Part shown: positions 6,813 through 55,720 of the stretch, piece after piece
Layout of the letters: each line of letters opens with the position of its first letter
How positions within the stretch are numbered: the stretch's first letter is position 1
Translations under genes and position numbers: made by a program
Notes under the pieces: model-generated
Told to the model about the DNA's origin: nothing
The model's database searches: none
What the model saw: only the letters and a program-made list of their open reading frames with translations
Origin: Bdellovibrionales bacterium
Lineage (GTDB): Bacteria > Bdellovibrionota > Bdellovibrionia > Bdellovibrionales > JAGQZY01
Reading direction: 5' to 3'
DNA: 64,000 nt
Assembly (NCBI GenBank): GCA_041739665.1
Contig: JBGSNK010000015.1
Span: 616 to 64,615, forward strand

Positions 6813-8714
6813 TTATTTTTTTTTACGAACCGCTTTTTTCTTAGCTGTTTTCTTTTGTGTGGATTTCTTTTTACTTTTTTTATTAGACGCCTGAGTCACT
6901 TGTGCCGTCTTTTTTTGAGTCGACTTTTTAGATTTCTTCTTTGCTAGGGGTTTGGATATGGACTTTTTTTTTGAACTTGTACGCACAGCTAATGTCTCAA
7001 GAATTGGACTGTCTTCTCCGTCGTCGATCTCAATGGCCGGCTCAATGTTTCGCTCGTCTTCATCAACCCCAGTGAAAGAGCCTATGCCTCTTTCATGCAT
7101 GCGCTGTTTGAGCTTTTTTAGTTTTAAGTCTGCATCGTCTAAGTCTTTTTCTGCCGCACGTGAGTCACGACCTAAAATTTTCTCAAGACCCGTAATAGCT
7201 TTTGCCTTACGAGAATCAGGAGCACCCGTGATACGAGCTAGTGTTTCGACAAGGATGGGACCAAACTGTTCGATATGTTTGATCTTGCGTTCAAGGTCGG
7301 CCGCTTTATTTTCACGCTTGATATGACGAGAGAGCTTTTGTCCGGCTCGCATCACAGCTAAGCGGATCTCTTCAACCAATTCATCCGAGGCATCGATTGT
7401 CTCTTTGGAGGCGTTCTTAAATTTAATGAAAGGCGACACCACCGAGATCGCAAAAATGTATGGCCCACTTGGCAAACTGTTCTTTGATTGGCTCAAACCA
7501 TAGGCGCGCCAATTGACAGATTCGATGGCCTTGGTTACCGCACAGGCACCTTTATCAAATTGGAGGGGCACTCGATTGGCAAAACGCAATAACTGAATCG
7601 ATCCGTCTTCGTTGCCGCGATCCAGAAATCGAGCCAAAGCCACTTCGATCACTACAGGCTTGTGATCACAAATTTTAGGCTTTCGAGTCACTACACTGAA
7701 GAAATCGACTTCGCCAATTCGCAAAATAGACTTGGATAGCGCCTCTTCACCGACAGTTAAGACCGAGCGTGTGGATGGATTGGGTAGAGGTGTGTCTTGA
7801 ATGGCCTGAAAGGCTTTTTTAAAGTTCACATCTTTAATCTGATTAATACTTTTATTGAGAAGCTCTTTGGGCAAACCATTTTTTATAAAATCCTTGATGG
7901 TGCTATCGGTGACTCTAGAAAAAGAAGTTTTTAAAAACTTTTGAAAAGTCATGTTTCCATATATTCCAGAGTGAGTGATGAACTCACCAAGCTTCATTGT
8001 GTGAGGATGAGGTAAGGTCGCAGAAGGTACTTTGGGCACCTCTTTTGTCACCCTTGGAATATGAATTTCATCGTTTTCCATCAACTTGTAACGCAACTCT
8101 AAGTGAGGATTCACGAGCGTGGTTCCCTCTAAATAAGTCAGCAAGCCGCCATCGCCGTTGAGTTGAACCCGACCATCAATTTTAAAGGACACTCTAGTGC
8201 CGTGGGAAACATCCCAGTCCACCATCTGTTTGTTTTTTAACAAACCCTTGTTGCCCTTTATATCAACATCCACTTGAGCCTCTATGGCTTTGCGCATTTT
8301 TTTTGTTTTACTACGAACCTGCACACCGGCAGCGTTGGTCAACTGAGCCCAGGTTGTGGCTGCCGAGATACCAATACCCTGCTGCCCACGAGACGCGCGA
8401 CCACGACCAAATTTAGATGAGGCAAGATATTCACCAAAAACTTTGGCTAGATCAGCTTGTTCAAGTCCAGGCCCATTGTCTTCTACAACGACCTCAATCA
8501 GGTCTGTGTTGCGTGCACTGCCCTTACCCACTTTAACCACTTGGACATTTAAATTAGGAGCAATGCCCGCCTCTTCACAGGCATCTAGTGAGTTGTCGAT
8601 CGCTTCCTTTAAGGTCGTGAGGACAGCCTTAGTGGGAGAAGAAAAGCCCACTTGCTGTAAATTTTTAGCAAAATACTCTGCTGTACTGCTTGATGTAATA
8701 TTCGATTTGGCCAA
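6813..8714 (-). CDS. top6B: DNA topoisomerase VI subunit B (GHKL/Bergerat ATPase) with a Lys-rich C-terminal tail
   Basis: EAIDNSLDACEE (N box), VEDNGPGL (G1), GQQGIGISAA (G2), a transducer-sized body, and a C-terminal ~50 aa that are mostly K/S/T/Q. Confidence 0.85.
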   Translation of the reverse strand: MAKSNITSSSTAEYFAKNLQQVGFSSPTKAVLTTLKEAIDNSLDACEEAGIAPNLNVQVVKVGKGSARNTDLIEVVVEDNGPGLEQADLAKVFGEYLASSKFGRGRASRGQQGIGISAATTWAQLTNAAGVQVRSKTKKMRKAIEAQVDVDIKGNKGLLKNKQMVDWDVSHGTRVSFKIDGRVQLNGDGGLLTYLEGTTLVNPHLELRYKLMENDEIHIPRVTKEVPKVPSATLPHPHTMKLGEFITHSGIYGNMTFQKFLKTSFSRVTDSTIKDFIKNGLPKELLNKSINQIKDVNFKKAFQAIQDTPLPNPSTRSVLTVGEEALSKSILRIGEVDFFSVVTRKPKICDHKPVVIEVALARFLDRGNEDGSIQLLRFANRVPLQFDKGACAVTKAIESVNWRAYGLSQSKNSLPSGPYIFAISVVSPFIKFKNASKETIDASDELVEEIRLAVMRAGQKLSRHIKRENKAADLERKIKHIEQFGPILVETLARITGAPDSRKAKAITGLEKILGRDSRAAEKDLDDADLKLKKLKQRMHERGIGSFTGVDEDERNIEPAIEIDDGEDSPILETLAVRTSSKKKSISKPLAKKKSKKSTQKKTAQVTQASNKKSKKKSTQKKTAKKKAVRKKK

Positions 8715-26316: not shown

Positions 26317-27675
26317 CTATTTTTTGAATTCCAATTGATGGTCTTTAACTTTTTTGTAGAGACTGGATCTCGAGATCTTGAGCTTCTTCGCCAAATCATC
26401 GACATCTAGGTTTTGTAGCAAGGCAAAAGTGAGTATTCGGTATTCATAATCCTCTAAAAGCTTGGCCAGGCCCTGGCTAAGATCAAAAAAAGAAGCCTCT
26501 GAAGAAGTGATACTCCCCTGGCCCTGACCTTTTAAAATCGAACGTACATCTTCAGCACGCACGATGGGCAGAGGGGCCATAAGGCTTAAGTGTTCACAAA
26601 CTCTTTTAAGCTGTCGAACATTTCCTGGCCATGAAAAATCTTGCAGAATTTCGAGTGCCTGGGGATCAATGGTTTTCTTAAGAGTGACATCTCGTTGGCT
26701 CATAAAAAATTGGCAGAGTTCGCCAATATCTTCCTTACGCTCCCTTAAGGGTGGCAGGTTCAAGCGATGTCCACTCAATCGAAACATCAAGTCTTGACGA
26801 AATTTCTCTTTTTCCACCAAACTTTGCAGATTCTCATTGGTTGCGGCGATAATACGTACGCTCACCTTTTGAGCTTCCGTGCTACCTACCCTCTGAAACT
26901 CACCACTTTCTAGAAAACGCAAAAGTTTTGCTTGGTGATTGAGGCTGAGGGCCTCGATCTCATCTAAAAATAGATCACCACCATGAGCCACTTCTACAAA
27001 TCCGGCTTTGTTATTTTGAGCCCCAGTAAAAGCCCCTTTGACATGGCCAAAAAATTCGGACTCAAACAGAGCATCGCTAATCGCAGCCACATTGACAGCG
27101 ACAAAGGGACGCTCCGGCTGGGCTTGGTGTAAGAGCTGGGCAATAACTTCTTTACCAGTCCCAGACTCGCCCTCGATGAGGATAGGAGCTTTTTCACTTT
27201 TCATGTTGGCAACAAAACGACGTACCCTATCTGACGACGCTCCCTGCCCCACCCATTTGACCACCGATTGAGCTTGTTTCTTAAGGTTCACACCACGTAG
27301 GACCCAGAGAGCTTCTATTTTATCGAGAACCAAGCGCAACTCATTTGAACTCAAAGGTTTGGCTAAAAAGCGTGTTGCTCCGGCTTTAAGAGTGGCCTCC
27401 ATATTTTCTCGCCTCATATCTCCCGACATGGCCACAATTTCGGAAAGACTTTGTTGCTGACTGAGGGTTTTCATCACAGTTAGGCCTTCCGATTTACTCA
27501 GATCTCCGGAGAGATGAATGTCAACCAGAGCCGCGTGGTAAAATTCATTAGGATTAAAGTTGTCTTTACTTTGAGCAATCATGGTCCAGTGCTCTGGCAA
27601 ACAAAGCTCAATCGTGTCGACCACTAGCGGGTCGTCATCTATGACCAATAAACGCAATTTTCCTGTCTGTGTCAC
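26317..27675 (-). CDS. Sigma-54-dependent response regulator (REC + AAA+ + Fis-type HTH)
   Basis: REC (VIDDD), Walker [15 protein letters not shown] sigma-54 contact loop, ESEFFGH, and a C-terminal HTH (..[17 protein letters not shown]). GTG start. Confidence 0.9.
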
Positions 27676-43595: not shown

Positions 43596-46500
43596 TTAGG
43601 GACTGAGCTTGAGCTTTCTGACGATGTGATTTTCAGTATCGCTGATATACAAATCACCATTGGCATCAAAATTAAGACCTGTCGGTCTTAACAAAGTAGC
43701 CGATGTTCCCGCCACACCTTCTTGACTAAAATCAAAGGGACTTCCCCCTGTTGCAATAGCTTCGATGCGCCCGGCGACGGTGCTCACCACACCCGTTGTC
43801 GTGTTGAAACATCTAACGTTATGACGGGCTCTTTGGGCGTAACAAAGACGACTCCCATAAAAGGCCAAACCTGTTGGTTGGTTACAGCGAGCTGAAGACA
43901 CTAAGACATTCTCGGAGTCACTGCCCGAAGTTCCACCTAGGCAGCCTACAGTCGAGACTTGATTGGGATTCACTGTAACGGTTCCTATCGACACAGGGCT
44001 TGCCGTTTTATTCCAATAGTAAATACGATGATTTCCCATATCGGAAATAAAAAGATTACCTAACCCATCGATTGCAATATCTCGAGGTTGATTGAAGTAA
44101 GCTGAACCCTCTGGAAAACTCAATGGAACTGGAGCTGGCCCGGGGAATGCCGTCGCACTAGTCGTTTCACATGTGCCCAGAACAGATGACAATGTTCCAC
44201 TGGCGTCCACATATTTGATACAATGATTAAGACTGTCGACAATATACATTTCAGGGTCGCCATTGTTATTCACAAACTTAACTGAGTTCGGATATCTTAA
44301 GCGAGACGCTAAGGCGGGTCCACTGGCATCGTGCCCTGCTCCCGAGACCCAATCACCAGCAACTGTTGAGATACGATTGTTTTGTATAAATTGTCCAAGA
44401 TAATTTTTATTAGAACCACTACGATTCCAAATGCGCACATTATGTCCATAGGGATTCAATTGAGCCAAACTGCCATCTTCCCAAATATCAAAACCGTTTG
44501 TAATCGCATTAGTCGCATTCCACGTGGATTGAAGGGGGGCATTATTAGGGAAATCATTATCTAAAGTCGGAGAGGCTGCTGGTCCTGAGCCCACCACGGA
44601 TTTCATACGTCCATATTTGTCCACAGAGCGTATTCGCTGATTGTTTTGATCGGCAATAAATAGTATCTGATTGGTGTTATCAAAAACTAAGCCTGATGGG
44701 AAATCCATAAGATGCTGGCTCACAGGGAGTTCGATGTCTCCTAAGAAACCACTCTTTCCATCTCCGCTGCCTAAGAAGTCACTCACCGCTCCCGTGATAA
44801 TGTTGATATCACGTAATCTATAATTGGAGTAATCCGAAACCACTAAACGATTGGAATTGTTTCGATCTATAGTAATGCCGCTGGGTTGATTGAATCTTGT
44901 CAAAGCAATTCCGGCATTCGAGCCGTTGTAACCGTTTGTCGCCTGGTTGATTCGCCCCAAAAGACCATTATTAATGGTGTTGCCATCAATTGTGATGGGG
45001 GCCGGAGAGTTGTTTGCTAGAACTATGCTCCCTCTGTGTAGGTCCGTAATGAAAATTGTATCCAAGTCCTTCACCCAAATACTTGAGGGTTGTGACACGG
45101 GTGTGGCCAAGGGGTTACCCGACAGAGGGGTAGCTCCGTTGGCTCCATTGCCGATGATCGTTGCCATCATTCCAGGAGCAACAATGATCTCGCTCGGGTT
45201 TCCAGACCAAAAGGTAATCGGATTTAGAGTGGTATTGATAAAGCGAACAAGGCGACGGCTGTACAAAGTGATATAAATTCCATTGGCATCCACAAAAATG
45301 CCCATGGGTTGACCTGTACCACCAGATGTGGGTGCCACATTGTTACCGGTGTTGTTATCAGAACCTGTTCCCGCAATAGTGTAAGCCAAGTCGCTGGCCA
45401 AATCCCACCGCTTGACACGATGGTCATTCAAACATGTGACATATAAATTGCCAGAATAATGGAACAATTCACGAGGACGACGGCAACGCTCTAAGAAAGC
45501 AGGCTGTCCGTTAATGTGGCTCGTTCCCCCACCCATTCCAACGAAGATAACACCGGACGCATCGACATATTTAATTAAATCACCTAAATACTCCGTGATA
45601 TAAAGTCGATCAAAAGCGTCGTCGTACCAAAGACCTCTAGGTTCATATAAGGGTGAGGCCAGAGCCGCAATACCAGCACTTCCACTTTCTGCAGAACCGG
45701 TCCCAGCAATCACCTGAATTGTTCCAGGCTGAATCGTCACGCCCACACGGGTCACGGCCGAAGCAGTGTTGTTCCAATACCAAACCACGTGATTGTCCAG
45801 ATCTGAAATAAAGAAGTTACCTAAAGCATCTTGGACATGGGACCCTGGGCGAAAGCGCAATGGATAATTCACATCAGTGGGTGAAAAACCACTTCCTTTA
45901 TTCGCGCTTCCAGCAAATGTGCAAATTTGACCTGTTTGCAACTCGTTACATTTCTGAGGAAACCAATTGACCTCTCCACTCCAACTAAAAGATGTAGACT
46001 TGGTTCCGTCGCTGACTTCAACCGTCACAAGATTGGTACCTACAATATCTGCATGTCCCGTTAAATACCCGGTCGCCCCAAGCCCACTTAGATGAGGGGA
46101 TGAAGCACCATTGAGTTTCCATTGAAAAGTTAAAGTGTCATTATTGGGATCCGTCGCTAAAGCCATAAAGCTCACAGTGGAGTCCACAGAAACTTTTGGA
46201 ATTCCGGAGGTCAAACTGCTTAAAACAGGAGGGCCGTTGACTTTAACGATCCACGCATTTTCAATGGTGGCCTTTTCATCTGACAAGGTAACGACCAGAT
46301 TGTGTTCGCCAATAAGAGCTTCAGTTGCTGTGAATGTAAACTGGTTCACCGCTGCTATGGCCTGACCGTCGAGCTTCCATGAATAATTAACTGTTCTGGG
46401 AAAGACGGCAACACCGGTAATAAAAAAATCAACCGATTGACCAATCTCGACAATGATCTCGCCCGCGTCTGGTAAACGACTGGTGATCTTTAACTCGGTG

Positions 46501-46616
46501 GCATTGGTGGGTCCACCGCCACCAGATAATATATCTAAAGAGGATCCCCCCTCTTGCTTACAGGAAGTTAGAAAAAGGAATATCAATAGGGGAATATAGA
46601 GCTTTGATATATTCAT
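43596..46616 (-). CDS. Large lipoprotein: N-terminal Ig-like domains plus multiple NHL-repeat beta-propeller blades (paralog 1)
   Basis: Lipobox ..LFLTSC. Two ~90-aa Ig/PKD-like units. Recurrent NHL motifs (e.g. FNQPRDIAIDGLGNLFISDMGNHRIYYW, LLRPTGLNFDANGDLYISDTENHIVRKL). Confidence 0.8.
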   Translation of the reverse strand: MNISKLYIPLLIFLFLTSCKQEGGSSLDILSGGGGPTNATELKITSRLPDAGEIIVEIGQSVDFFITGVAVFPRTVNYSWKLDGQAIAAVNQFTFTATEALIGEHNLVVTLSDEKATIENAWIVKVNGPPVLSSLTSGIPKVSVDSTVSFMALATDPNNDTLTFQWKLNGASSPHLSGLGATGYLTGHADIVGTNLVTVEVSDGTKSTSFSWSGEVNWFPQKCNELQTGQICTFAGSANKGSGFSPTDVNYPLRFRPGSHVQDALGNFFISDLDNHVVWYWNNTASAVTRVGVTIQPGTIQVIAGTGSAESGSAGIAALASPLYEPRGLWYDDAFDRLYITEYLGDLIKYVDASGVIFVGMGGGTSHINGQPAFLERCRRPRELFHYSGNLYVTCLNDHRVKRWDLASDLAYTIAGTGSDNNTGNNVAPTSGGTGQPMGIFVDANGIYITLYSRRLVRFINTTLNPITFWSGNPSEIIVAPGMMATIIGNGANGATPLSGNPLATPVSQPSSIWVKDLDTIFITDLHRGSIVLANNSPAPITIDGNTINNGLLGRINQATNGYNGSNAGIALTRFNQPSGITIDRNNSNRLVVSDYSNYRLRDINIITGAVSDFLGSGDGKSGFLGDIELPVSQHLMDFPSGLVFDNTNQILFIADQNNQRIRSVDKYGRMKSVVGSGPAASPTLDNDFPNNAPLQSTWNATNAITNGFDIWEDGSLAQLNPYGHNVRIWNRSGSNKNYLGQFIQNNRISTVAGDWVSGAGHDASGPALASRLRYPNSVKFVNNNGDPEMYIVDSLNHCIKYVDASGTLSSVLGTCETTSATAFPGPAPVPLSFPEGSAYFNQPRDIAIDGLGNLFISDMGNHRIYYWNKTASPVSIGTVTVNPNQVSTVGCLGGTSGSDSENVLVSSARCNQPTGLAFYGSRLCYAQRARHNVRCFNTTTGVVSTVAGRIEAIATGGSPFDFSQEGVAGTSATLLRPTGLNFDANGDLYISDTENHIVRKLKLSP

Positions 46617-46756: not shown

Positions 46757-49744
46757 TTAGTCACTTAATTTTATTTTACGAACAATATGATTGTATGTGT
46801 CGCTCACGTACAAGTCTCCATTTGAGTCAAAGGTCAAGCCAGAGGGGTTTTGCAAAGTGGCCTCGTTGCCAGGAATACCTTCTTGGGAAAAATCAAAAGG
46901 CGAGCCCGCCCCAGGGGTGGCTTCGTTGCGGCCCGCTACGGTTTTTAAAATTCCGGTCGAGGTATCCATGCAACGGACATTATGGCGCCCTGCCTGAGCA
47001 TAGCAAAGGCTATTTTCATGGAGAGCTAAGCCGATAGGAGTGTTACAGCGAGAGGATGTTGCCAAAATATTTTCTGCCGTACTCCCCGCAGTTCCCCCCA
47101 TACATGCAATAACTGCAATATGATTGGGATTCACCGTAACAGTCCCAATTTGTCGACTGACAGCACTTCTGTTCCAGTACCAAATATGATGATTCACACT
47201 ATCCGAGATAAAAAGGTTACCATGGCTGTCAATAGCCACATCACGCGGACGATTAAATTGAGCACTTCCCTCTGGCACATTTAGACCTGGGTTACCGGCC
47301 GTTCCACAGTCCCCCACGGCTGTAGTCAACTCTCCAGTGCTATCCACATGGCGAATGCAATGATTCAAAGAATCCACTATGAACATTTCCATTTGACCGG
47401 CGTTATTAAAAAATTTTGCAGAGTTTGGATATGTCAGCTGGGCTGCTAATGCAGGTCCCTCTGGGCCATCGCCAGCGCCAGAAACCCAATTACCTGCAAT
47501 CGTAGAGACTCGATTGTCTTGTAAGAATTGACCAAAGTAGGATTGATCCGAGCCACTGCGGTTCCATATACGAACATTGTGCCCATAAGAGTTGAGCTGT
47601 AAAAGGGATCCGTCCTCCCAAATATCAAATCCGTTTAGATAAGAGTTCGTTGTGTTAAAATTACTGCGTATTCGAGTGCTATTGGGAAACTCGTTATCGG
47701 GTATGGGATCTCCAGCAGTTATCGATCCGACAGCAGTTTTGACAAGACCATAACGATCAAGCACACGGACTCTATGATTATTTTGATCTGCTACAAATAA
47801 GAGTTGGTTCTGATTATCAAATGCCAAACCGGTTGGAAAATTTAAGAGGTGTTGAGAAGTCGGAAGTTCAAAGTCTCCCATATTCCCATTTTTTCCGACC
47901 CCAGAGCCCAAAAAATCTGTCACTTGGGCTGTCGACACATTGATATCGCGAAGTCTAAAATTATTATAATCAGCTATAATGACACGTTCTGGATTTAAAA
48001 TATCTAGAGATAAATGATAAGGGCTACTGAATCGAGTGGCGTTCACACCTGCCGTGGTTCCATTATAGCCAGCCGTGTTGCTATTGATCCGACCCATTTG
48101 ACCTGCCACAATTGTTAGGCCGTCAATATTGATATCCACACCAGAATTGTTGGCTGCGACAATATGGCTGCGTTGTTGTCCAGAAATATAGATAACATCA
48201 TCTGGACTCACCGAGATTCCCGAGGGTCTAGCGACCGGAGCACTCAAGGGATCTGCACTAGCAGGTGTGTTTCCGTTCCCTCCATTGCCGACAATGGTGG
48301 CCATAAGACCAGGCCCCACAGTTATCTCATCGGGGTTACCTGACCAAAATGTTTTAGGAACAAGACTCGTGTTGATAAAGCGAACACGCCTCTGGTCCCA
48401 CAGGGTGATGTAAATCCCATCGTCATTGGTAAATAGACCATAGGCCTGACCTGTCCCTCCCGATGTGGGTGCCACATTGTTTCCATTTGTATTGTTGGCA
48501 CCCGTTCCGGCAACTGTATAGGCCTGATCCGAACTTAAATCCCAACGTTTGACTCTATGGTCGGTATAGCAAGTCACGTAAAGTTGGTCGTTACGAAGTG
48601 AAATTCCATTTGGATTGCGGCAACGATGGGTGAAAGCCGAGGCTCCATCCACATGAGATGTGCCTCCTCCCATTCCAATAAAGACGACCCCAGAGCTATT
48701 TACGTATTTCACTGTGTGACTGGACCATTCGGATATAAAAAGTCGATCCGAGCCACCATCATACCAAAGACCTCTTGGGCCATTTAAAGCAGACTCTAGA
48801 GCAGAAAGACCTGCACTTCCACTAGCAGCTTCCCCTGTACCTGCGACAACTTGAATAACGCCTGCGGGGATCACTCGCCCAATACGACTCACTGGATTTG
48901 CAGTATTATTCCAGTACCAAACAACATTATTATCCAAATCAGAAATAAAGAAGTTCCCAAGACTGTCTTGAAAGTGACTGATTGGACGAAAACGCAATGG
49001 AAAATCAACATTTGTTGGAGAAAAACCGCTTCCTTTGTTTGCAGAACCAACGACAGTACAAATCTCTCCTGTCTCAAGTTCATTGCAAGCTTGAGGAAAA
49101 AAATTGACTTCCACATCCCAAGAGTGGCTAGCCGTTTGAGTGCCATCGTCGACTTCAACAGTAACAGTATTGAGTCCGACTATACTCTCGTGTCCGGTGA
49201 GTTGTGCACTGCTTGTTGTCCCCAGCAAATGAGTGGAAGTCGCTCCATTTAATAACCATCGGTAGTTTAAGCTATCATTATTGGGATCCGAGGCCACAGC
49301 ATTTAAACTTAAAGTCGATCCCACAGATATTTTTTGTTGACCCTCTTGCTGACCAGATACTACAGGTGGTCCATTCACTTTTATTTCCCAAGTGTTTGAG
49401 ATCGTTGCCTGATCATCAGAGAGGGTGGCAATAAGAGTATGATTGCCAATGTTTTCTTCGAGACCAATGAAGGTGAAATCATTGATAGCATTGACAAGAG
49501 CCCCATCAAGAGTCCAGGAATAAGTTACAGTTCTGGGAAAAACGGCCACACCTGTAATAAAAAATTCCTGACTCTCTCCAATTTCAACAATGACCTGACC
49601 TTGATCCGGAATGCGACTCGTGATTTCAAGCTCTGTGGCATTGGTCGGTCCACCACCGCCAGTTAATATATTAAGAGAGGTGCTTCCGTCCTGTTTACAG
49701 GACAAAAGCAAAAATGCCCCCAAATATAAAGCTAAAAATCTCAT
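46757..49744 (-). CDS. Large lipoprotein: N-terminal Ig-like domains plus multiple NHL-repeat beta-propeller blades (paralog 2)
   Basis: Lipobox ..FLLLSC. Collinear with paralog 1 along its whole length, and about two-thirds identical by eye over the first ~110 aligned residues. Same NHL motifs (FNRPRDVAIDSHGNLFISDSVNHHIWYW). Confidence 0.8.
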   Translation of the reverse strand: MRFLALYLGAFLLLSCKQDGSTSLNILTGGGGPTNATELEITSRIPDQGQVIVEIGESQEFFITGVAVFPRTVTYSWTLDGALVNAINDFTFIGLEENIGNHTLIATLSDDQATISNTWEIKVNGPPVVSGQQEGQQKISVGSTLSLNAVASDPNNDSLNYRWLLNGATSTHLLGTTSSAQLTGHESIVGLNTVTVEVDDGTQTASHSWDVEVNFFPQACNELETGEICTVVGSANKGSGFSPTNVDFPLRFRPISHFQDSLGNFFISDLDNNVVWYWNNTANPVSRIGRVIPAGVIQVVAGTGEAASGSAGLSALESALNGPRGLWYDGGSDRLFISEWSSHTVKYVNSSGVVFIGMGGGTSHVDGASAFTHRCRNPNGISLRNDQLYVTCYTDHRVKRWDLSSDQAYTVAGTGANNTNGNNVAPTSGGTGQAYGLFTNDDGIYITLWDQRRVRFINTSLVPKTFWSGNPDEITVGPGLMATIVGNGGNGNTPASADPLSAPVARPSGISVSPDDVIYISGQQRSHIVAANNSGVDINIDGLTIVAGQMGRINSNTAGYNGTTAGVNATRFSSPYHLSLDILNPERVIIADYNNFRLRDINVSTAQVTDFLGSGVGKNGNMGDFELPTSQHLLNFPTGLAFDNQNQLLFVADQNNHRVRVLDRYGLVKTAVGSITAGDPIPDNEFPNSTRIRSNFNTTNSYLNGFDIWEDGSLLQLNSYGHNVRIWNRSGSDQSYFGQFLQDNRVSTIAGNWVSGAGDGPEGPALAAQLTYPNSAKFFNNAGQMEMFIVDSLNHCIRHVDSTGELTTAVGDCGTAGNPGLNVPEGSAQFNRPRDVAIDSHGNLFISDSVNHHIWYWNRSAVSRQIGTVTVNPNHIAVIACMGGTAGSTAENILATSSRCNTPIGLALHENSLCYAQAGRHNVRCMDTSTGILKTVAGRNEATPGAGSPFDFSQEGIPGNEATLQNPSGLTFDSNGDLYVSDTYNHIVRKIKLSD

Positions 49745-49839
49745 CTAGTGGCTTCCTCTTATAGATAACTATCGGAGAATTGATATGAGAACTAAAATGC
49801 TATCTATCCATAAATATTTCTTATATATTGAGCAGCTTC

Positions 49840-49859
49840 TATAAGACACTAGTCTTATA
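49840..49859. promoter_or_regulatory. Perfect palindrome TATAAGAC-ACTA-GTCTTATA in the divergent control region
   Basis: 8-bp arms with a 4-bp spacer, in the 187-bp gap between the NHL paralog 2 start (49744, -) and the PEGA/TPR lipoprotein start (49932, +). Confidence 0.35.
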
Positions 49860-49931
49860 ATTAGACTCTTGTCCTGTAAAGAAAATCAGTAACTTATGTC
49901 GAAAGAGAACTATCAAATAGGAGTTTTTAAA

Positions 49932-50558
49932 ATGATGAAGACAATTCTAGTTCTCCTTTTTCTCAACTCGTTAATTGCTTCTTGCACAAGTATGCAGATG
50001 AAAATTGAGTCTGAGCCATCCGAGGCCACAGTTTATCTAAAAGATGGACAAAAAATTAAAAAAATTGGCGTCACACCTCTCAATATTAACAGTGAACAAT
50101 ATAACGATGTTGAAAATTTCCATTTAAGAATAGAAAAAGAGGGTTACAAATCCCATGAAATTATTGTCGATAAGCGGTCTGTCACAAGTCGAGCTAAAAT
50201 TTTTGCATCAATGAATAAAATGGATTTAGAAAACAATGCTTCAAATAACGCTAGCACAGGTAGCTCTAATCCAATTTCACTTATTCAAGCTCAGCAACAT
50301 CGCGGGCTCGCTAGTATTCAATCACTTTTATTACAAAGCCAATACGCCCAAGCAGAAGTGATAGCACGACAATTCGTTGTCGAAAATCCATTCTCTTCAG
50401 TGGGCTGGAGTCTTTTAGGAAACGCTTACCTTTTGCAAAACAAAAGTTCATTGGCCTTAGAAGCCTACCAAAAATCCTTGGAATACGAACCTGAAAACGA
50501 AGACACTCGACGCATTGTCGAACGTCTTAAAAATGACACTCCAAAAAGGAGTCGATAG
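49932..50558 (+). CDS. Lipoprotein with a PEGA domain and C-terminal TPR repeats
   Basis: AGGAG upstream of the ATG at 49932. Lipobox LIASC. PEGA pattern (IESEPSEATVYLKDG..GVTPL..). TPR-like GWSLLGNAYLLQNKSSLALEAYQKSLEYEP. Confidence 0.7.
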   Translation: MMKTILVLLFLNSLIASCTSMQMKIESEPSEATVYLKDGQKIKKIGVTPLNINSEQYNDVENFHLRIEKEGYKSHEIIVDKRSVTSRAKIFASMNKMDLENNASNNASTGSSNPISLIQAQQHRGLASIQSLLLQSQYAQAEVIARQFVVENPFSSVGWSLLGNAYLLQNKSSLALEAYQKSLEYEPENEDTRRIVERLKNDTPKRSR

Positions 50559-51350
50559 ATGTACAATTTTATTGGCTTTATAATATCAATCGCATTCGTA
50601 AAGTTTGCCCTTGGTCACCTCAGTGTCAACACTAGCTTTTTTGTTGACGTTGTCGCTTTGTTAGTTGTTTTTGGTGGCACTTTCGGTGTCATGGTGATTT
50701 CGTTTCCGCCCAAATTTTTATTTCGATTTTTTACAGCACCAATGAAAATGATAGTCTCCAAAAGTCCCAACTTTGTTCAAGCGATAGAGTCACTAATTAA
50801 GGCTTTGCAAGACGATAAAGATCGCAAACACAACTTAAAGAAACTGAGCGAGCAAAAAAATACCGATACATTTTTAAAAGAGGGTATCGAGCTCTATTTA
50901 ATGGATATGCCCCTTAAAGACTTTAAAAATATTATGACAGAAAGAATTTATCGATCTCGGCAAAGAGAAGAGGATAATATCAACCTTTTTCGTCGTTTGG
51001 CTAAGTATCCACCGGCTTTTGGATTGGTTGGAACGGTTTTGGGTCTAATCAGTCTGATGCGGTCTGTTGGTGAAGGCGCAAATGCATCTACAATTGGTTT
51101 GAATATGGCTCTTGCCTTAACAGCCACTCTTTACGGTTTGGCCTTTTCAAATTTTGTACTAGCTCCTATTGCTGAAAACTTTCAAAGTGTCGCAGATGAG
51201 AAAAAGGTATTTCAGGAGTTGTTACTTGAGGGACTTCTCCTTTGTTATGATGGCTCGTCACCTCTCACAGTTCAAGAGATGCTCAACTCGTACGTCGAAC
51301 CTCACAAACGAATAGATATATTAGGTGTTAATCAAAAGGAATCTGCATAA
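50559..51350 (+). CDS. motA: MotA/PomA-type proton-channel stator protein
   Basis: Starts directly after the upstream TAG. 2+2 TM helices with a long charged cytoplasmic loop. AKYPPAFGLVGTVLGLI and LYGLAFSNFVLAPIAENF contain the conserved MotA prolines. Confidence 0.8.
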   Translation: MYNFIGFIISIAFVKFALGHLSVNTSFFVDVVALLVVFGGTFGVMVISFPPKFLFRFFTAPMKMIVSKSPNFVQAIESLIKALQDDKDRKHNLKKLSEQKNTDTFLKEGIELYLMDMPLKDFKNIMTERIYRSRQREEDNINLFRRLAKYPPAFGLVGTVLGLISLMRSVGEGANASTIGLNMALALTATLYGLAFSNFVLAPIAENFQSVADEKKVFQELLLEGLLLCYDGSSPLTVQEMLNSYVEPHKRIDILGVNQKESA

Positions 51351-52073
51351 GTGGAACACAATAAACTGCGCAACATTCAAAGCTCAGAAGAAGTTGAAAA
51401 CAACTGGGCGATTAGCTATGGAGATATGATTACCCTCCTACTTGGCTTTTTTGTTATCTTCTTTAATATTAAGAATGAAACAATGAATTTGCAGCTAGTT
51501 CATAAAGATATCACCAAGTATTTTGAGACAAGCGATGGTCGAGGTCCTTCGGCCATTGCAGGTACGGGCGGCAAAGAACAACAACGCCCTGGAACTCTCA
51601 CTGAAACAATTGCAGCAAAATTAAAAGTGAAAGCAAATATCGATGGCGAAAAAATAATCATAGAGTTTCCCAATACTAGCTTCTTTGATTCCTCAGCTTA
51701 TGAGCTCAATGAAACTGGAAAAGCGGCTTTAACAGAGTTTTCCAATGCCATCAAAGATCACTTAGGATTATTTAGACTTGTTGTGCGAGGGTACACAGAC
51801 ATTAAACCCGTCAACCCTGGTGCGCGCTATAAGGACAATCTAGAGCTTTCTGCCTTTCGATCCATTTCTGCTATTCGCTACCTGGCTAACCAAGGTATTC
51901 GCATGGAAAATATGAGAATTGCAGGTTTTGGAGAATCCTCTATGAGCCGTGAGAGCTTGGACGTCAAAGATTTAAGCCAACAACGGAAAGTTGTAATTGT
52001 TATTGAACCTCTGGATCACACCGAGCGAGCATTTAACAAGTTAATGGACAATAAAACTGAGGTGACTCAATGA
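51351..52073 (+). CDS. motB: MotB-type stator protein with an OmpA-like peptidoglycan-binding domain
   Basis: GTG immediately after the motA stop. WAISYGDMITLLLGFFVIFF (channel Asp in a MotB-like TM). C-terminal OmpA-like region (F.SSAYEL.., LVVRGYTD, NLELSAFRSISAIRYL, GFGES). Confidence 0.8.
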   Translation: MEHNKLRNIQSSEEVENNWAISYGDMITLLLGFFVIFFNIKNETMNLQLVHKDITKYFETSDGRGPSAIAGTGGKEQQRPGTLTETIAAKLKVKANIDGEKIIIEFPNTSFFDSSAYELNETGKAALTEFSNAIKDHLGLFRLVVRGYTDIKPVNPGARYKDNLELSAFRSISAIRYLANQGIRMENMRIAGFGESSMSRESLDVKDLSQQRKVVIVIEPLDHTERAFNKLMDNKTEVTQ

Positions 52074-53740
52074 AATATCTAGTCCTTTTGATATCTCTTT
52101 TACTTGTCGCGCCCGTGCATGCATCTCGGGTGATTGAGATTGAAGACTATTACTCAAATAAGGTCACAGACTTTATTAAATCGCGCTACCCTCGTGTTGC
52201 ATTTTCAATTTCTGTCAAAGCAATCGTCGAAGAAGAGGTTAACAACAGAAATCAAAAGCAAGACACTCTAGCTCTACCCTATATGGATGGTATGGAATCA
52301 AAGGCTATTGGTTTTTGGGAACAAAAAGACATTCCATTGGGTACTTTAATTTCATATGTGAAAAGTATTTCAGTAAAAGTTGATATTGACAGAAATTTTA
52401 CATTAGAAGAAATTCAACAGTTTAAATCAGAAATGAGTGAATATTTAAAACTCTCAGATGTTTATGACCGTTTAGAAATAAGCCAAAGACAATGGCAAAG
52501 CCCTTGGTCTATTGAAAATAGTGGAAACCAAATCGTCCTCATAATGATTGGTATCCTTCTTTTAGCTATTGTCTTTTTTGTGGTTTTCCAAAGTGGGATC
52601 CGAAGCCTTATTAAGGGCCTTGCACAACCTCTTAGCGAAATTGGAAAATCTGCTGAGAACGTTGCCAACACGGCTTCCGCTGTTCGCCCCTCTTCTAATA
52701 ATTCTCAGTCTGGTTTTGCTGGCTCTAACTCACAACACCTGGATGTCCAAAATTCCAAGCAAATTATCTCTGAAATCAAAATGATGTCGTCCTTTATTGG
52801 CAATCCAAATCCTGACTTAATCCGTAAAATCGAGAAATTGGGTCAAGAAGATCCACAGGCGATGGGTGCTCTTTTAAAAGAAGTAGAAGTTGAAGATTTA
52901 AAGTCTTTAGTTTCATGGGGACGTGGCGAATGGTGGAGACAAGCCATTACACAACCTGGCTCTCTATCTGAGAATTCCTTTCGCTTTTTTAATGAAATAA
53001 CAACTCTCTCAAGAAAGAGTCAGTTGTTACCTAATAATAGTGAATTTGATGACTTCCAAAAAATTATTGCAAGACTCAGTATCAAAGAGTTTGGTCAGTT
53101 GTTGGAAGGTGCTAGCTTTGAACAAGCAGAGCCTATTTTAAGGCTGACTCCGCAAGAAGTTCGAGTCTCTGTAGGTAAATATTTGTACCCCGGCCAGTGG
53201 GCACAGTTGCTCAAAGATTCAGGAAAAGGTAAAAAATCCGTGCTTTTGGCCGATGTAAAGAAAAAATACAGCGATAAAGCGCTGAAGATATGTCCATTGA
53301 TAGAAAGTGAGCTCATTGAACAGTATTTCGAGGACGCTGAGATGGTCTCTTTCCTAGATCACAATTCAACAAAAGATGAACGAGAAGTTTACCGAGCCTT
53401 GGATGAGACTTCATGGATCAAACAAAATAGACGCCCCTTCTATAGTATTCTTCAAGAAGACAAAAATATCCTAGAGAAACTAGTTTCAGAAACTCATTTA
53501 GATCAGTGGGCTTTAGCATTTACATGCTGCGATTCAGATGAACAAGAACAACTTTTGGTTTTATTTACAGAAAGACAAAGATTTTTATTAAAGAATGCTA
53601 AAAAACAGTATCTTTTACAGCCACCACAACAGCAAGATGTGGCCTTTGCTAAAAGAGAAATCATAAATATTTGCAATCAAATTAAACAGTTTGAAAAGAG
53701 CTATCCGAGTGCTGAAATCAATAATGAAATTGCTGCTTAA
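52070..53740 (+). CDS. Bitopic membrane protein: signal peptide plus periplasmic FliF/YscJ-like domain, one TM, cytoplasmic FliG-like (middle + C-terminal) domain
   Basis: ATGA overlap with motB. TM IVLIMIGILLLAIVFFVVF followed by basic residues. DLIRKIEKLGQEDPQAMGALL resembles the FliG ..DLIRDEHPQIIA.. region. ..ILEKLVSETHLDQWALAFTCCDSDEQEQLLVLFTERQRFLL.. resembles the FliG C-domain ..IQRLLQEVDSESLLIALKGA...REKFLRNMSQRAADIL. Confidence 0.5.
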   Translation: MKYLVLLISLLLVAPVHASRVIEIEDYYSNKVTDFIKSRYPRVAFSISVKAIVEEEVNNRNQKQDTLALPYMDGMESKAIGFWEQKDIPLGTLISYVKSISVKVDIDRNFTLEEIQQFKSEMSEYLKLSDVYDRLEISQRQWQSPWSIENSGNQIVLIMIGILLLAIVFFVVFQSGIRSLIKGLAQPLSEIGKSAENVANTASAVRPSSNNSQSGFAGSNSQHLDVQNSKQIISEIKMMSSFIGNPNPDLIRKIEKLGQEDPQAMGALLKEVEVEDLKSLVSWGRGEWWRQAITQPGSLSENSFRFFNEITTLSRKSQLLPNNSEFDDFQKIIARLSIKEFGQLLEGASFEQAEPILRLTPQEVRVSVGKYLYPGQWAQLLKDSGKGKKSVLLADVKKKYSDKALKICPLIESELIEQYFEDAEMVSFLDHNSTKDEREVYRALDETSWIKQNRRPFYSILQEDKNILEKLVSETHLDQWALAFTCCDSDEQEQLLVLFTERQRFLLKNAKKQYLLQPPQQQDVAFAKREIINICNQIKQFEKSYPSAEINNEIAA

Positions 53741-54284
53741 AGCAATTCTTATTTCATTTATAATCCCCACTTGGGCTTTTGCTGGCCAAGGGCAGGTGAC
53801 AGCCAAGCTAGGTACTTGGGCCTTTGATGTATCGGGCAATAGCAGTTCTGCTGAATCGGCTTCTGGTATTGGAGCTTATGCCTTTGAAGTGGGTTATAGT
53901 TTTTTTCCGCAAATTATGGTTGTCTTTGGATTTAACCTTGTTATGAGCGAGCTGGTTTCAGGAAGTGCAGGTTACGGTCTGGATCTTGGGGCCCGTTACT
54001 ATCCCCTATCTGATTCGGGCACTTACCAACAATCTACAGATTTTACAGACATCACGATTCAAGAAAAATGGCGTCCCTATATAGGCTTGGCCATGCGTCA
54101 GCGTCTTTTTGGTCTAGCCCTGTCGACCAGCTATTTTGGTCCTGGAATCAGTTTAGGTTTGGATTACTCTCTCACTTCAAAATGGTTGCTCACTTCAGAA
54201 CTTCGCTATGATTATCTTTATGGCCAAGGTGATACTTTGGCCGTCCAAACAAATATATTATTTGGTTTTGGCCTAGAGTTCTGA
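53724..54284 (+). CDS. Small outer-membrane beta-barrel protein
   Basis: Signal MKLLLKAILISFIIPTWAFA. Alternating-hydrophobic strands and a C-terminal ..LFGFGLEF (terminal Phe). 17-nt overlap with the upstream gene. Confidence 0.65.
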   Translation: MKLLLKAILISFIIPTWAFAGQGQVTAKLGTWAFDVSGNSSSAESASGIGAYAFEVGYSFFPQIMVVFGFNLVMSELVSGSAGYGLDLGARYYPLSDSGTYQQSTDFTDITIQEKWRPYIGLAMRQRLFGLALSTSYFGPGISLGLDYSLTSKWLLTSELRYDYLYGQGDTLAVQTNILFGFGLEF

Positions 54285-54423
54285 CTTAAAGCTGATCCAT
54301 CAATATTTGCATGATCACTCACTTTTTACTATATTCAACGACAGTCCATAGCACCGGACAAACAGCCTATTTAAGAGTGGCGAGATTTTTGTAAAATTCC
54401 TAATTCACAAAAGGAGATATATT

Positions 54424-54747
54424 GTGAGCAATCGTCGCCTGGTTTGGTCCGATGAAGACGGAGATCAGCGTAAAAATAAAATGACTACAGAAACAGTTGT
54501 GAATATGAAGGGACTTGAGCTCAAAGTGCGTCGGCTGACTTCTGGCAAAGGTCGAACTGTCGTTGAGATCAGTGACCTGCCGAACAACAAAAAATGGTGC
54601 CAAGAACTTGCACGAGATCTAAAGAAAAAACTCGGCGTTGGAGGATCGTACAAGGACGCCTATATTGAAATTCACGGCGAGAAACTCGATGCAGTAACCC
54701 AGTTCCTCGATAGCAAACAGCTCAAATGGAAAAAGATCGGCGGCTAA
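54424..54747 (+). CDS. yciH: SUI1/eIF1-family translation factor (YciH-like)
   Basis: GTG start after AAGGAG. ..RRLTSGKGRTVVEISDL.....LARDLKKKLGVGGS......IEIHGE... is the SUI1 fold signature. Confidence 0.8.
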   Translation: MSNRRLVWSDEDGDQRKNKMTTETVVNMKGLELKVRRLTSGKGRTVVEISDLPNNKKWCQELARDLKKKLGVGGSYKDAYIEIHGEKLDAVTQFLDSKQLKWKKIGG

Positions 54748-54858
54748 AGGTCCGGGCCGGCACAGGTGTTGCTCTTTATCAGTCCTGAAGCCCTATTGGG
54801 CCCAAGACTGGGACAAAATGACTCACTTTTAGGGCCCTCTGAGACAAAGGAGTGAAGA

Positions 54859-55260
54859 ATGTCTAAACCAATCCGCGATTTCATGACCCCCATGCCCCAC
54901 ACCATTGGACAAGATATTGAGATAGGTAAAGCCAAGGACATGATGGCTGAATACGGCTGTCACCATTTGCCAGTCCTAAACGGCGGTCATTTGGTCGGAA
55001 TTGTAAGCGATACAGATATCCGCACTTTGAAAAAAATAGCCGATTCAGACAGCTTAAAAGTAGAGGATATCATGACTGAAGATCCAGAAATTGTCCCACC
55101 CCACAAAGACGTCTTCCAGGTGGCGATGCTTATGCACCAAAAGAAGATCGGAAGTGTTATTGTGTCAGCTAGCGATGATTCTCCATGGGGCATATTCACC
55201 GCCACTGATGCTCTACGATATTTGACTGAAGACAAACATTTAAATCTTAATACACTTTAA
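54859..55260 (+). CDS. CBS-pair domain protein
   Basis: Two CBS motifs (..HHLPVLNGGHLVGIVSDTDI.. and ..IGSVIVSASDDSPWGIFTATD..). Confidence 0.8.
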   Translation: MSKPIRDFMTPMPHTIGQDIEIGKAKDMMAEYGCHHLPVLNGGHLVGIVSDTDIRTLKKIADSDSLKVEDIMTEDPEIVPPHKDVFQVAMLMHQKKIGSVIVSASDDSPWGIFTATDALRYLTEDKHLNLNTL

Positions 55261-55276
55261 CAAAAAAGGAGTGTTT

Positions 55277-55720
55277 ATGTTTGCAAAACCTCACTGGAAT
55301 ATTGCCGTGGTCGTGGACAGAAGCCAAGCTCGCTTTATCAACCGCAAGCCATTCAATATATTTGCCACTTTTGTCAACGAATTGGGACGCACTAAAAATC
55401 GCGAGTTCACAGATGACAAGCCTGGACTCAGTCGTGCTAAGGGAGGCGGCCCCTCGAGCACTCACAGTTTAGGAAGTGAAAAAGACCCCACCGCTGAAGC
55501 CGATAAACAGTTTGTGCATGCTCTTTGTGATCGCATTGACAAACTTTGCTACGAAACAAATTTACAACAGTTTTTAATTGTGGCTGAACCTAAAATGAAA
55601 GGCTTGATTCGAGCCAAGCTTAGTTCACAATCCTTAGATAAAAGCTTGTGGATGGACAAAGACCTAGCACACTTTAACAAGCACGAACTCAAAGAAAAAC
55701 TCAAAAACTATGAAGCTTAA
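55277..55720 (+). CDS. Host_attach family protein (protein required for attachment to host cells; eRF1/Pelota-like fold reported)
   Basis: ..AVVVDRSQARFI.., DDKPGLSR, ..FLIVAEPKMKGLIRAKL..DKDL.. follow the family pattern (VVADGxKARxF / DxPGR / LVLVAPPxxLGxLR / KDL). The ATG at 55277 follows AAAGGA. Confidence 0.6.
   Translation: MFAKPHWNIAVVVDRSQARFINRKPFNIFATFVNELGRTKNREFTDDKPGLSRAKGGGPSSTHSLGSEKDPTAEADKQFVHALCDRIDKLCYETNLQQFLIVAEPKMKGLIRAKLSSQSLDKSLWMDKDLAHFNKHELKEKLKNYEA

Follow-up and report, generated by a model that had tools for sequence, protein, structure and literature searches.

The 64,000-nucleotide stretch of Bdellovibrionales contig JBGSNK010000015.1 analysed here (hereafter, the window) contains at 49932-54284 five consecutive, tightly coupled open reading frames (ORFs), all on the + strand. 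This cassette, whose genes we call g1 to g5, encodes a flagellar-type stator (g2 and g3), a membrane protein with a FliG-like cytoplasmic part (g4), and two predicted outer-membrane components (g1 and g5), and it is accompanied by a gene for a giant NHL-repeat lipoprotein transcribed divergently from g1. The five genes are:

49932..50558, + strand: g1, lipoprotein of 208 amino acids (aa) with a PEGA-like domain and a C-terminal TPR domain (profile matches, lipobox)
50559..51350, + strand: g2, MotA/PomA-type stator A subunit of 263 aa with four transmembrane (TM) helices and a cytoplasmic loop of ~100 aa (MotA_ExbB match)
51351..52073, + strand: g3, MotB-type stator B subunit of 240 aa with a plug, a TM helix carrying an Asp, and an OmpA-like peptidoglycan-binding domain
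52070..53740, + strand: g4, bitopic inner-membrane protein of 556 aa, read here as a FliF (RBM3-like; RBM, ring-building motif)-TM-FliG-like fusion
53724..54284, + strand: g5, small outer-membrane beta-barrel of 186 aa with a signal peptide (AFA/GQ) and the C-terminus ...GLEF

We re-read from the sequence the four tight junctions reported in a preliminary description of this DNA: stop and start codons abut between g1 and g2 (TAG/ATG, 50556-50558/50559) and between g2 and g3 (TAA/GTG, 51348-51350/51351), g3 and g4 share the tetranucleotide ATGA (52070-52073), and g4 and g5 overlap by 17 nucleotides (nt; 53724-53740). We also favour the g1 start proposed there, at 49932, because a ribosome-binding sequence AGGAG (49920-49924) lies 8 nt upstream and the N-termini of homologues begin at this point, at the signal peptide. 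The ATG at 49896, chosen in the mechanical ORF list, is ruled out by this ribosome-binding site, the homologue N-termini, and an overlapping promoter-like element.

Profile searches matched the domains previously assigned to all five proteins, those of g4 to FliG_C and of g5 to OMP_b-brl remaining below cut-off. With a PomA-like length of 263 aa, g2 matches the Pfam family MotA_ExbB (PF01618, E = 3e-21) and aligns over its full length, including the large cytoplasmic region between TM2 and TM3 that forms the torque-generating interface, with the solved structures of PomA (8bri) and MotA (9lu9, 6ysf, and 8ucs), with E values ranging from 5e-27 to 1e-17. Its motifs PPAFG and LAPIA, already pointed out as carrying the channel prolines, align with P173 and P222 of the E. 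coli protein and are kept in 12 orthologues. Likewise, the MotB-type channel Asp (in YGDM) and OmpA-like domain proposed for g3 are confirmed by Pfam matches to MotB_plug (E = 2e-8) and OmpA (E = 5e-10) and by the alignment of the Asp of its ISYGDM motif, invariant among the aligned orthologues, with D32 of E. coli MotB. The best NCBIfam match of g2 is PomA (E = 1.5e-36), with 126 bits compared with an equivalog cut-off of 341 bits, and the MotD match reaches 82.8 bits for a cut-off of 283; none of the NCBIfam equivalog thresholds is reached, so that the stator represents a divergent branch and has no orthologue among the curated stators. The TolQ and ExbB models match g2 with E = 4e-7 and 3e-4, respectively, compared with 1.5e-36 for PomA. 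In the framework that separates a flagellar-type ('FIT') clade of stators from a 'generic ion transporter' branch (PMC12505986), these sequence comparisons place the divergent g2/g3 stator in the flagellar-type branch and not with the Tol/Exb/Agl type.

The g4 protein belongs to a narrow family annotated as 'hypothetical'. A word-indexed search of 5.8 billion proteins retrieved 19 clusters, all of 552-564 aa (a repeat search with a 54-sequence alignment brought no protein beyond these 19), and an exhaustive profile search retrieved 210 representatives at the 50% level, nearly all of 540-630 aa and matched from end to end. Its named members come from metagenome-assembled genomes (MAGs) of Bdellovibrionales, Bdellovibrionia, Pseudobdellovibrionaceae, Bdellovibrionaceae, and Oligoflexales, and the 30 clusters that we inspected hold 1-5 sequences each, all of MAG or metagenome origin. 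We modelled g4 with AlphaFold on the family alignment (mean predicted local distance difference test score, pLDDT, of 76) and also made a second model, which together with the sequence give the following layout:

Residues 1-18: cleavable-looking signal peptide, with an invariant junction A18-S19-R20
Residues 19-150 (52124..52519, + strand): periplasmic domain according to the model topology, the structured part covering about residues 20-139
Residues 155-173 (52532..52588, + strand): TM helix, with a hydropathy peak of 3.48, within a helix of the model spanning residues 152-194
Residues 195-225: linker, disordered in the model
Residues 226-556 (52745..53737, + strand): all-helical cytoplasmic FliG-like region of 331 aa, the length of a whole FliG
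Residues 450-538 (53417-53683, + strand): match to Pfam FliG_C

That the cytoplasmic part of g4 is FliG-like over the whole length of FliG, with its three-domain N-M-C architecture of ~330 residues, is well supported by both profile and model comparisons. The window protein alone matches FliG_C (PF01706) with E = 1.1e-4 and 22.8 bits (cut-off 23.3); matches to the same family were found in 13 of the 19 close members and in 32 of the 54 members of the broad family, the best with E = 1e-10, and a profile of the broad family matches the FliG_C of T. maritima in the PDB (E = 9e-5). When the g4 model was searched against the PDB with Foldseek, full-length FliG structures came at the top, led by that of Aquifex (3hjl, E = 7e-4 over 350 columns) and next by FliG from the Salmonella C-ring (8wiw_3 and 9n49_G), with 323-350 columns aligned and E values of 7e-4 to 3e-3 across the full-length proteins. 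The isolated FliG_C domain 1qc7 was matched with a template modelling score (TM-score) of 0.85 and a root-mean-square deviation (rmsd) of 2.0 Å, and the MotAB-bound FliG_C 8ucs_H with a TM-score of 0.76. Matches of the MgtE_N/ARM type occur in 12 of the 19 close members, and FliG_M is matched by none of the 19 close and 54 broad members. On the torque helix, the 54 family members all have K or R at the position of E. coli R281, and the equivalent of D288 is E in 26 of the 54 and N in the window protein; the equivalent of the MFXF hinge is a nearly invariant P-F-(Y). Comparisons by hhalign of the family with single E. coli FliG and FliF sequences (probabilities of 3% and 0.2%) were uninformative because a one-sequence template has no profile. 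Unlike a soluble FliG bound non-covalently to the C-terminus of FliF, the FliG-like part of g4 shares one polypeptide chain with a TM helix and a periplasmic domain. The preliminary description had suggested a FliG-like cytoplasmic part for this protein, and had considered that the lack of any FliG-like or ring-forming fold would speak against its proposal; full-length FliG tops the structural matches and the periplasmic domain is predicted to be an RBM.

This periplasmic domain has in both models the topology alpha1-beta1-[46-aa insert]-beta2-alpha2-beta3, the insert being modelled with low confidence and bearing an invariant LPY..FW..D..G signature. Foldseek searches with the whole model or with the periplasmic domain alone are dominated by the RBM3/S-ring part of FliF, from Salmonella (7cg7, 6sd1, 8t8p, and 7bk0) and Vibrio (8z4d/8z4g), with probabilities of 0.7-1.0 (local matches, 0.98-1.0 at an rmsd of 1.8 Å over ~50 residues) and E values of 0.03-0.1. 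The FliF RBM3 has been described as alpha1/beta1/[beta-collar]/beta6/alpha2/beta7 (PMC11481574), and the insert of g4 occupies the position of the beta-collar. The model is thus suggestive of a probable ring-building motif of the FliF RBM3 type.

The C-terminal ends of these proteins also deserve mention. The MotB orthologues of most close relatives (L002-L005, L007-L009, and L013 of the loci compared below) have an extension of ~100 aa past the OmpA-like domain, with a conserved helical motif (..LYQK..D..V...L...GYS...I..), which the window g3 and its counterpart in L001 do not have. Both the MotA-like and the g4 families end in -SA or -AA (51339-51350 and 53726-53737 in the window), A556 of g4 being nearly invariant among the 54 members; this terminal pair of small residues recalls C-terminal degradation or processing signals and might reflect proteolytic control of both partners.

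The remaining components are predicted to lie at the cell periphery. The g1 protein matches PEGA (22.5 bits, cut-off 20.8) and TPR_1 (31.7 bits, cut-off 27.8) and is presumably attached to the outer membrane, its lipobox Cys (in LIASC) being kept in 12 of 12 aligned orthologues. For g5, the match to OMP_b-brl has E = 3.4e-4, and its orthologues carry a precomputed PF13505 match. Upstream of the cassette and divergent from g1, two NHL-repeat lipoproteins, 61% identical to each other, are encoded in tandem:

46757..49744, - strand: paralogue a, 995 aa, with a lipobox (LLSC) and two Ig/PKD-like domains followed by NHL beta-propellers (NHL E = 4e-28)
43596..46616, - strand: paralogue b, 1006 aa (NHL E = 7e-20, TEN_NHL, Big_9)

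Comparison with other genomes identifies paralogue a, a protein probably exposed at the outer membrane or cell surface, as a conserved sixth partner of the cassette; whether paralogue b belongs to the system is uncertain. We compared 15 loci from uncultured Bdellovibrionota (L001-L005, L007-L010, L012-L014, and L017-L019; L006 and L011 are copies of L002 and L010, respectively). The order lipoprotein-MotA-MotB-g4-barrel is found in 14 of them, with g4 identities of 21-46%, and it persists in distant loci where this identity falls to 21-29%; the exception is L018, with the barrel gene at the front of the cassette, and L012 ends at a contig end inside motB. Recurrence of the same five genes at such levels of g4 divergence indicates that the cassette is more than a chance association, and conservation of the whole as a unit had been proposed as a check. 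Each locus with a covered flank encodes a large secreted protein with repeats of the NHL or Ig/fn3 kind, adjoining the cassette or within a few kb of it. An orthologue of paralogue a (48-59% identity) is found in such a position in L001-L009, and the giant partner is part of the same-strand gene array at three loci: in L013 the NHL gene stands between g4 and the barrel gene, in L017 (7892-15347) it directly follows the g5 barrel gene on the same strand, and in L019 (4733-12206) a 1021-aa Ig/fn3/Big_6 protein replaces the NHL protein and opens the operon. The partner in L010 is a 3930-aa NHL/cadherin-like protein, and in L018 (6942-15517) a 1198-aa unannotated protein is encoded downstream. Among the small flanking ORFs of L001-L014 we found no further recurring neighbour.

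No flagellar gene was found beside the cassette in the regions covered. None of the 45 window ORFs scanned with Pfam, of the 49 of at least 150 aa, belongs to a flagellar family (the other four sit at the ribosomal-protein end), in agreement with the earlier statement that the window has no fliM/fliN, flhA, flg, or hook/rod genes, and none occurs in the gene-called flanks of 11 other loci. The cassette is therefore never embedded in a flagellar gene cluster in these regions; such embedding was part of what the preliminary description had named as contrary to its proposal. In the window, it lies among housekeeping genes (aconitase, topoisomerase VI, photolyase, rpoA, and rplQ).

The intergenic region provides information on when these genes may be expressed. 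In B. bacteriovorus, the attack-phase/FliA (sigma-28) consensus is TTAAG-N16-CCGATA, and FliA controls about two thirds of the attack-phase promoters, including those of non-flagellar surface proteins (Karunker et al. 2013, PMC3627812). We searched for this consensus as an a priori pattern. Three elements were noted between the divergent genes:

49770..49796, - strand: FliA (sigma-28)/attack-phase type promoter of the NHL gene, TTTAG-N16-CCGATA, with 1 mismatch, 52 nt upstream of the start
49840..49859, no strand: perfect 8-bp inverted repeat TATAAGAC-ACTA-GTCTTATA, read from the sequence, midway between the divergent NHL and cassette promoters
49877..49904, + strand: weak FliA-type promoter candidate for the cassette, TAAAG-N17-TCGAAA, with 3 mismatches

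In 8 of 11 cases (the window, L001, L002, L003, L005, L007, L008, and L009), a FliA-type site with 0-2 mismatches stands at the same place upstream of the NHL gene, those of L005 and L009 being perfect, and the Ig-repeat gene at the head of the L019 operon is preceded by a perfect TTAAG-N17-CCGATA; no good site was found within 150 nt upstream of paralogue b. For the cassette itself, the site preceding g1 in the window is, with its 3 mismatches, not significant alone, and sites with at most 2 mismatches occur at -50 to -59 of g1 in 6 of 12 loci, compared with a background of 3.5% per interval searched (binomial tail 1.4e-6). The FliA-type sites before each of them make it very probable that a sigma-28-type factor regulates the cassette together with its giant partner. 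Such a factor marks late flagellar genes, motAB included, in enteric bacteria. The promoter sequences suggest that the cassette is probably co-expressed with the flagellum, and they point to free-swimming, prey-seeking cells. By placing the cassette in the flagellar/attack-phase regulon they keep a flagellum-associated role alive, although they do not decide between a flagellar and a non-flagellar one because FliA also drives non-flagellar surface proteins. The inverted repeat is a possible operator for a shared regulator. A scan of 49600-54500 for sigma-70 promoters and intrinsic terminators yielded fewer promoter-like sites than shuffled sequences and no convincing terminator, and no sigma-54 consensus was found 5' of g1. 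A sigma-54-dependent response regulator (receiver and Sigma54_activat domains) is encoded at 26317-27675 (- strand), ~22 kb from the cassette.

Our preferred interpretation, to which we give about the same chance of being right as of being wrong, is that the locus encodes a filament-less stator-rotor module made from flagellar parts and coupled to the outer membrane. The g2 and g3 proteins would form an ion-driven stator of the MotA5B2 type, with the 5:2 stoichiometry of such motors, which the OmpA-like domain of g3 would attach to peptidoglycan. Its dedicated partner would be g4, a type I membrane protein once its Sec signal peptide is cleaved, which may oligomerise through the periplasmic ring-building-motif domain in the manner of the FliF S-ring and offer the torque helix of its FliG-like domains to the cytoplasmic loop of g2. 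Ion flow would turn the stator and thereby drive a g4 ring devoid of export gate, rod, hook, and filament, whose output would pass in the periplasm to the PEGA/TPR lipoprotein g1, the g5 barrel, and the giant NHL/Ig-repeat lipoprotein. The likely purpose would be to move, tension, or expose this giant surface protein in the free-living attack phase, with possible uses in surface movement, adhesion, or prey contact; we propose such movement or tensioning by analogy with GldLM-SprB and AglRQS-Glt-CglB. The boldest form of this scheme, a natural FliF-FliG ring spun by a flagellar-type stator and working on the giant lipoprotein via the TPR lipoprotein and the outer-membrane barrel, is possible and in our opinion somewhat doubtful.

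The resemblance to the flagellar motor core lies in several parts: a PomA-like g2 with four TM helices and conserved prolines; a g3 with plug, channel Asp, and OmpA-like anchor; a g4 with the FliG_C fold, a basic torque-helix residue, an MFXF-like hinge, and a predicted RBM3-like domain with its insert at the beta-collar position; and a sigma-28-type promoter. Unlike the flagellar motor, the cassette is not accompanied by genes for FliM/FliN, an export apparatus, a rod, a hook, a filament, or an L/P ring; it combines the FliF-like and FliG-like parts in one polypeptide, it appears not to keep the canonical R90/E98 and D288/D289 charges, and it includes an obligatory TPR/PEGA lipoprotein, a small outer-membrane barrel, and the giant NHL/Ig-repeat lipoprotein. 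Whereas flagellar FliF possesses three RBMs and two TM helices, g4 has one predicted RBM, a cleavable-looking signal peptide, and one TM helix. Joining of FliF and FliG has precedents. In Salmonella and Vibrio, FliF and FliG fused by engineering into one covalent chain remain able to build MS-ring-like rings (PMC6079021, PMC10941966, and PMC11481574), although these are laboratory constructs in which full-length FliF and FliG operate within a complete flagellar system. The flagellum-less Chlamydiaceae have a natural FliF-FliG(M) fusion (Bergeron 2016, PMC4768692), in which a shortened FliF made of a signal sequence or TM helix, an RBM-type periplasmic part, and a TM helix is followed by a FliG-like cytoplasmic domain. 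Together, the engineered and natural fusions make the architecture proposed for g4 plausible. The chlamydial protein differs from g4 in its size (~330 aa), its RBM2-like and second RBM-like domains without any SpoIIIAG/RBM3-like domain, a FliG part limited to a FliG_M-like region, and the lack of a MotAB partner, being thought to work with the injectisome. By comparison, g4 combines a predicted RBM3-like domain with a FliG-like part that is full-length and includes FliG_C, and its gene lies next to those of a stator.

Other machines powered by the proton motive force (PMF), namely GldLM of type IX secretion system gliding in Bacteroidota, AglRQS-Glt in Myxococcota, TolQRA-Pal, ExbBD-TonB, and ZorAB, share with the cassette the logic of an inner-membrane motor that is encoded together with envelope-spanning and surface or adhesin parts and passes its work on to the outer membrane. 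Nevertheless, GldLM, AglRQS, TolQR, ExbBD, and ZorAB are classified in the non-flagellar branch, that of the 'generic ion transporter' (PMC12505986), whereas the stator of the cassette is of the flagellar type. Moreover, GldM, TolA, TonB, and GltG/J are arms that span the periplasm, in contrast with the cytoplasmic FliG-like ring proposed as the partner here.

Several observations weigh against the stator-rotor module. The FliG_C match of the window g4 falls 0.5 bit under the Pfam threshold, and the charges corresponding to FliG D288/D289 are not conserved in the clade of the window, the D289 equivalent being non-acidic. The same holds in this clade for the charges corresponding to MotA R90/E98 (R88/E96 of PomA), with the reservation that the alignment is uncertain in the loop; in a PomA-based alignment, equally uncertain there, the equivalent of R88/K89 is R, K, Q, or S and that of E96 is non-acidic in most orthologues. 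The RBM assignment rests on a model with a pLDDT of 76, its Foldseek E values are 0.03-0.1, and OsmC-like folds score alike; none of the 54 g4-family members matches Pfam YscJ_FliF (PF01514) or YscJ_FliF_C (PF08345), and an hhalign comparison with a 61-sequence FliF RBM3 profile is colinear and non-significant (P = 0.045, probability of 1%). No axle, track, or periplasm-spanning arm was identified in the cassette, FliA-type promoters fit an ordinary flagellar motAB operon, and every member of the g4 family comes from an uncultured organism. The self-contained machine with a minimal rotor and outer-membrane parts imagined in the preliminary description is therefore supported in its architecture and only partly as a whole, in view of the promoters and of the charge pairs not kept in this clade, its rotation and its roles in gliding or prey contact being putative. 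Its list of parts is confirmed, the giant NHL/Ig lipoprotein, the FliF-like half of g4, and the promoters being additions to it.

The most serious competing explanation, which we judge considerably less probable than the stator-rotor module, is that the cassette is an accessory of the flagellum. Under this hypothesis, g2 and g3 would be an extra stator set for the single flagellum and g4 a FliG-like platform for docking, storage, or regulation of stator units, acting as decoy, clutch, or pre-assembly site, with g1 and g5 as periplasmic and outer-membrane scaffold comparable to PflA/PflB/FlgP or to the MotX/MotY of high-torque or sheathed motors. TPR proteins indeed scaffold stators in other flagella. 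The flagellar PomA/MotA type of g2 and g3, distinct from Tol/Exb/Agl, and the FliA-type promoters upstream of the cassette fit this idea, as does the usual presence in this group of several motAB pairs in separate small operons (PMC11323537, PMC11870529), B. bacteriovorus having three for comparison. However, a membrane-tethered g4 with its own periplasmic domain cannot be a normal C-ring subunit, a giant NHL/Ig-repeat protein strictly linked and co-regulated has no flagellar precedent, and the cassette has no flagellar neighbour, whether at the 11 gene-called loci or among the ORFs scanned in the window. The promoters themselves need not imply a flagellar role, given the share of FliA in the attack-phase promoters of B. 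bacteriovorus (PMC3627812).

An improbable, though not negligible, alternative dispenses with rotation. A Tol-Pal/TonB-like transducer would convey the PMF through the MotAB-like unit to the conformation of g4, and from there to g1 and g5, without forming any ring. Its function would be export, surface exposure, or maintenance of the giant lipoprotein, or else outer-membrane maintenance. Such a device would account for the envelope-spanning set of a TPR lipoprotein (with a weak YbgF-like match, E = 0.018), an OmpA-like anchor, and an outer-membrane barrel, and for the cargo-like variability of the giant protein (mostly NHL, Ig/fn3 in L019, 3930 aa in L010). It fits poorly with the TolQ and ExbB scores of g2, far below the flagellar 1e-36, and with g4 itself: TolA and TonB are engaged via their TM helix and span the periplasm, while the periplasmic part of g4 has ~130 residues and its cytoplasmic part is a FliG-like region of 330 residues with a conserved torque helix. 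In addition, an 8-stranded barrel is too small for a secretion pore. The last candidate, a Zorya-like anti-phage system or other known MotAB-derived defence module, was suggested by matches of g3 to ZorB models (best E = 1e-15), which reflect generic MotB homology. It is effectively refuted, since PADLOC finds no defence system, with none of the cassette genes matching ZorA, ZorC, or ZorD; g2, of 263 aa, lacks the long ZorA tail, and both gene content and promoters point to the envelope and motility.

Full-text literature searches gave us no description of this operon or protein family and, to our knowledge, bona fide flagellar-type MotAB stators and FliG have been described only as flagellar parts. 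What would be new is a flagellar rotor-stator core occurring as a stand-alone module coupled to the cell envelope, with a substantial minority chance of something more novel, namely a filament-less rotary engine. If the stator-rotor module is real, the rotor-stator core of the flagellum can exist and be selected separately, which bears on models for the origin of the flagellar motor, and it offers a very small system, with three inner-membrane proteins, for the study of stator-rotor coupling. In predatory bacteria, the cassette is moreover a concrete candidate for the machinery of surface motility or prey contact, a field in which the gliding motor of Bdellovibrio, its adhesins, and its force transmission are considered a major open challenge (PMC13104615, a 2026 review). 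A filament-less engine would be a third, independent use of the 5:2 motor for surface movement or prey adhesion and a candidate gliding or adhesion motor in part of the Bdellovibrionota, although the link to Bdellovibrio gliding is only a possibility, as no evidence of the cassette in cultured B. bacteriovorus came from our searches, in which the genome-collection scan used patterns specific to the close subfamily and strain HD100 was not tested directly. Alternatively, a rotor-stator pair of pre-flagellar times might have a living relative in this cassette, one that either lost the type III export core or never gained it. Should the cassette prove to be a flagellar accessory instead, g4 would still define a new class of stator-docking protein.

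Some other features of the window can be mentioned. Its G+C fraction is 0.39 over 50001-54000, covering the cassette, compared with 0.43-0.45 in the flanks, and the GC skew is slightly positive there; the low value could reflect membrane-protein composition or a different history. The region directly 3' of the cassette (54424-55720, + strand) encodes a SUI1-family protein, a CBS-pair protein, and a protein that matches 'Host_attach' (PF10116)/bacterial eRF1-like family 12; these genes are not kept beside the cassette at other loci. Farther away, adjacent genes encode the A (Spo11/Toprim; 5631-6803, - strand) and B (transducer and GHKL ATPase; 6813-8714, - strand) subunits of topoisomerase VI, an archaeal/eukaryotic-type enzyme uncommon in bacteria.

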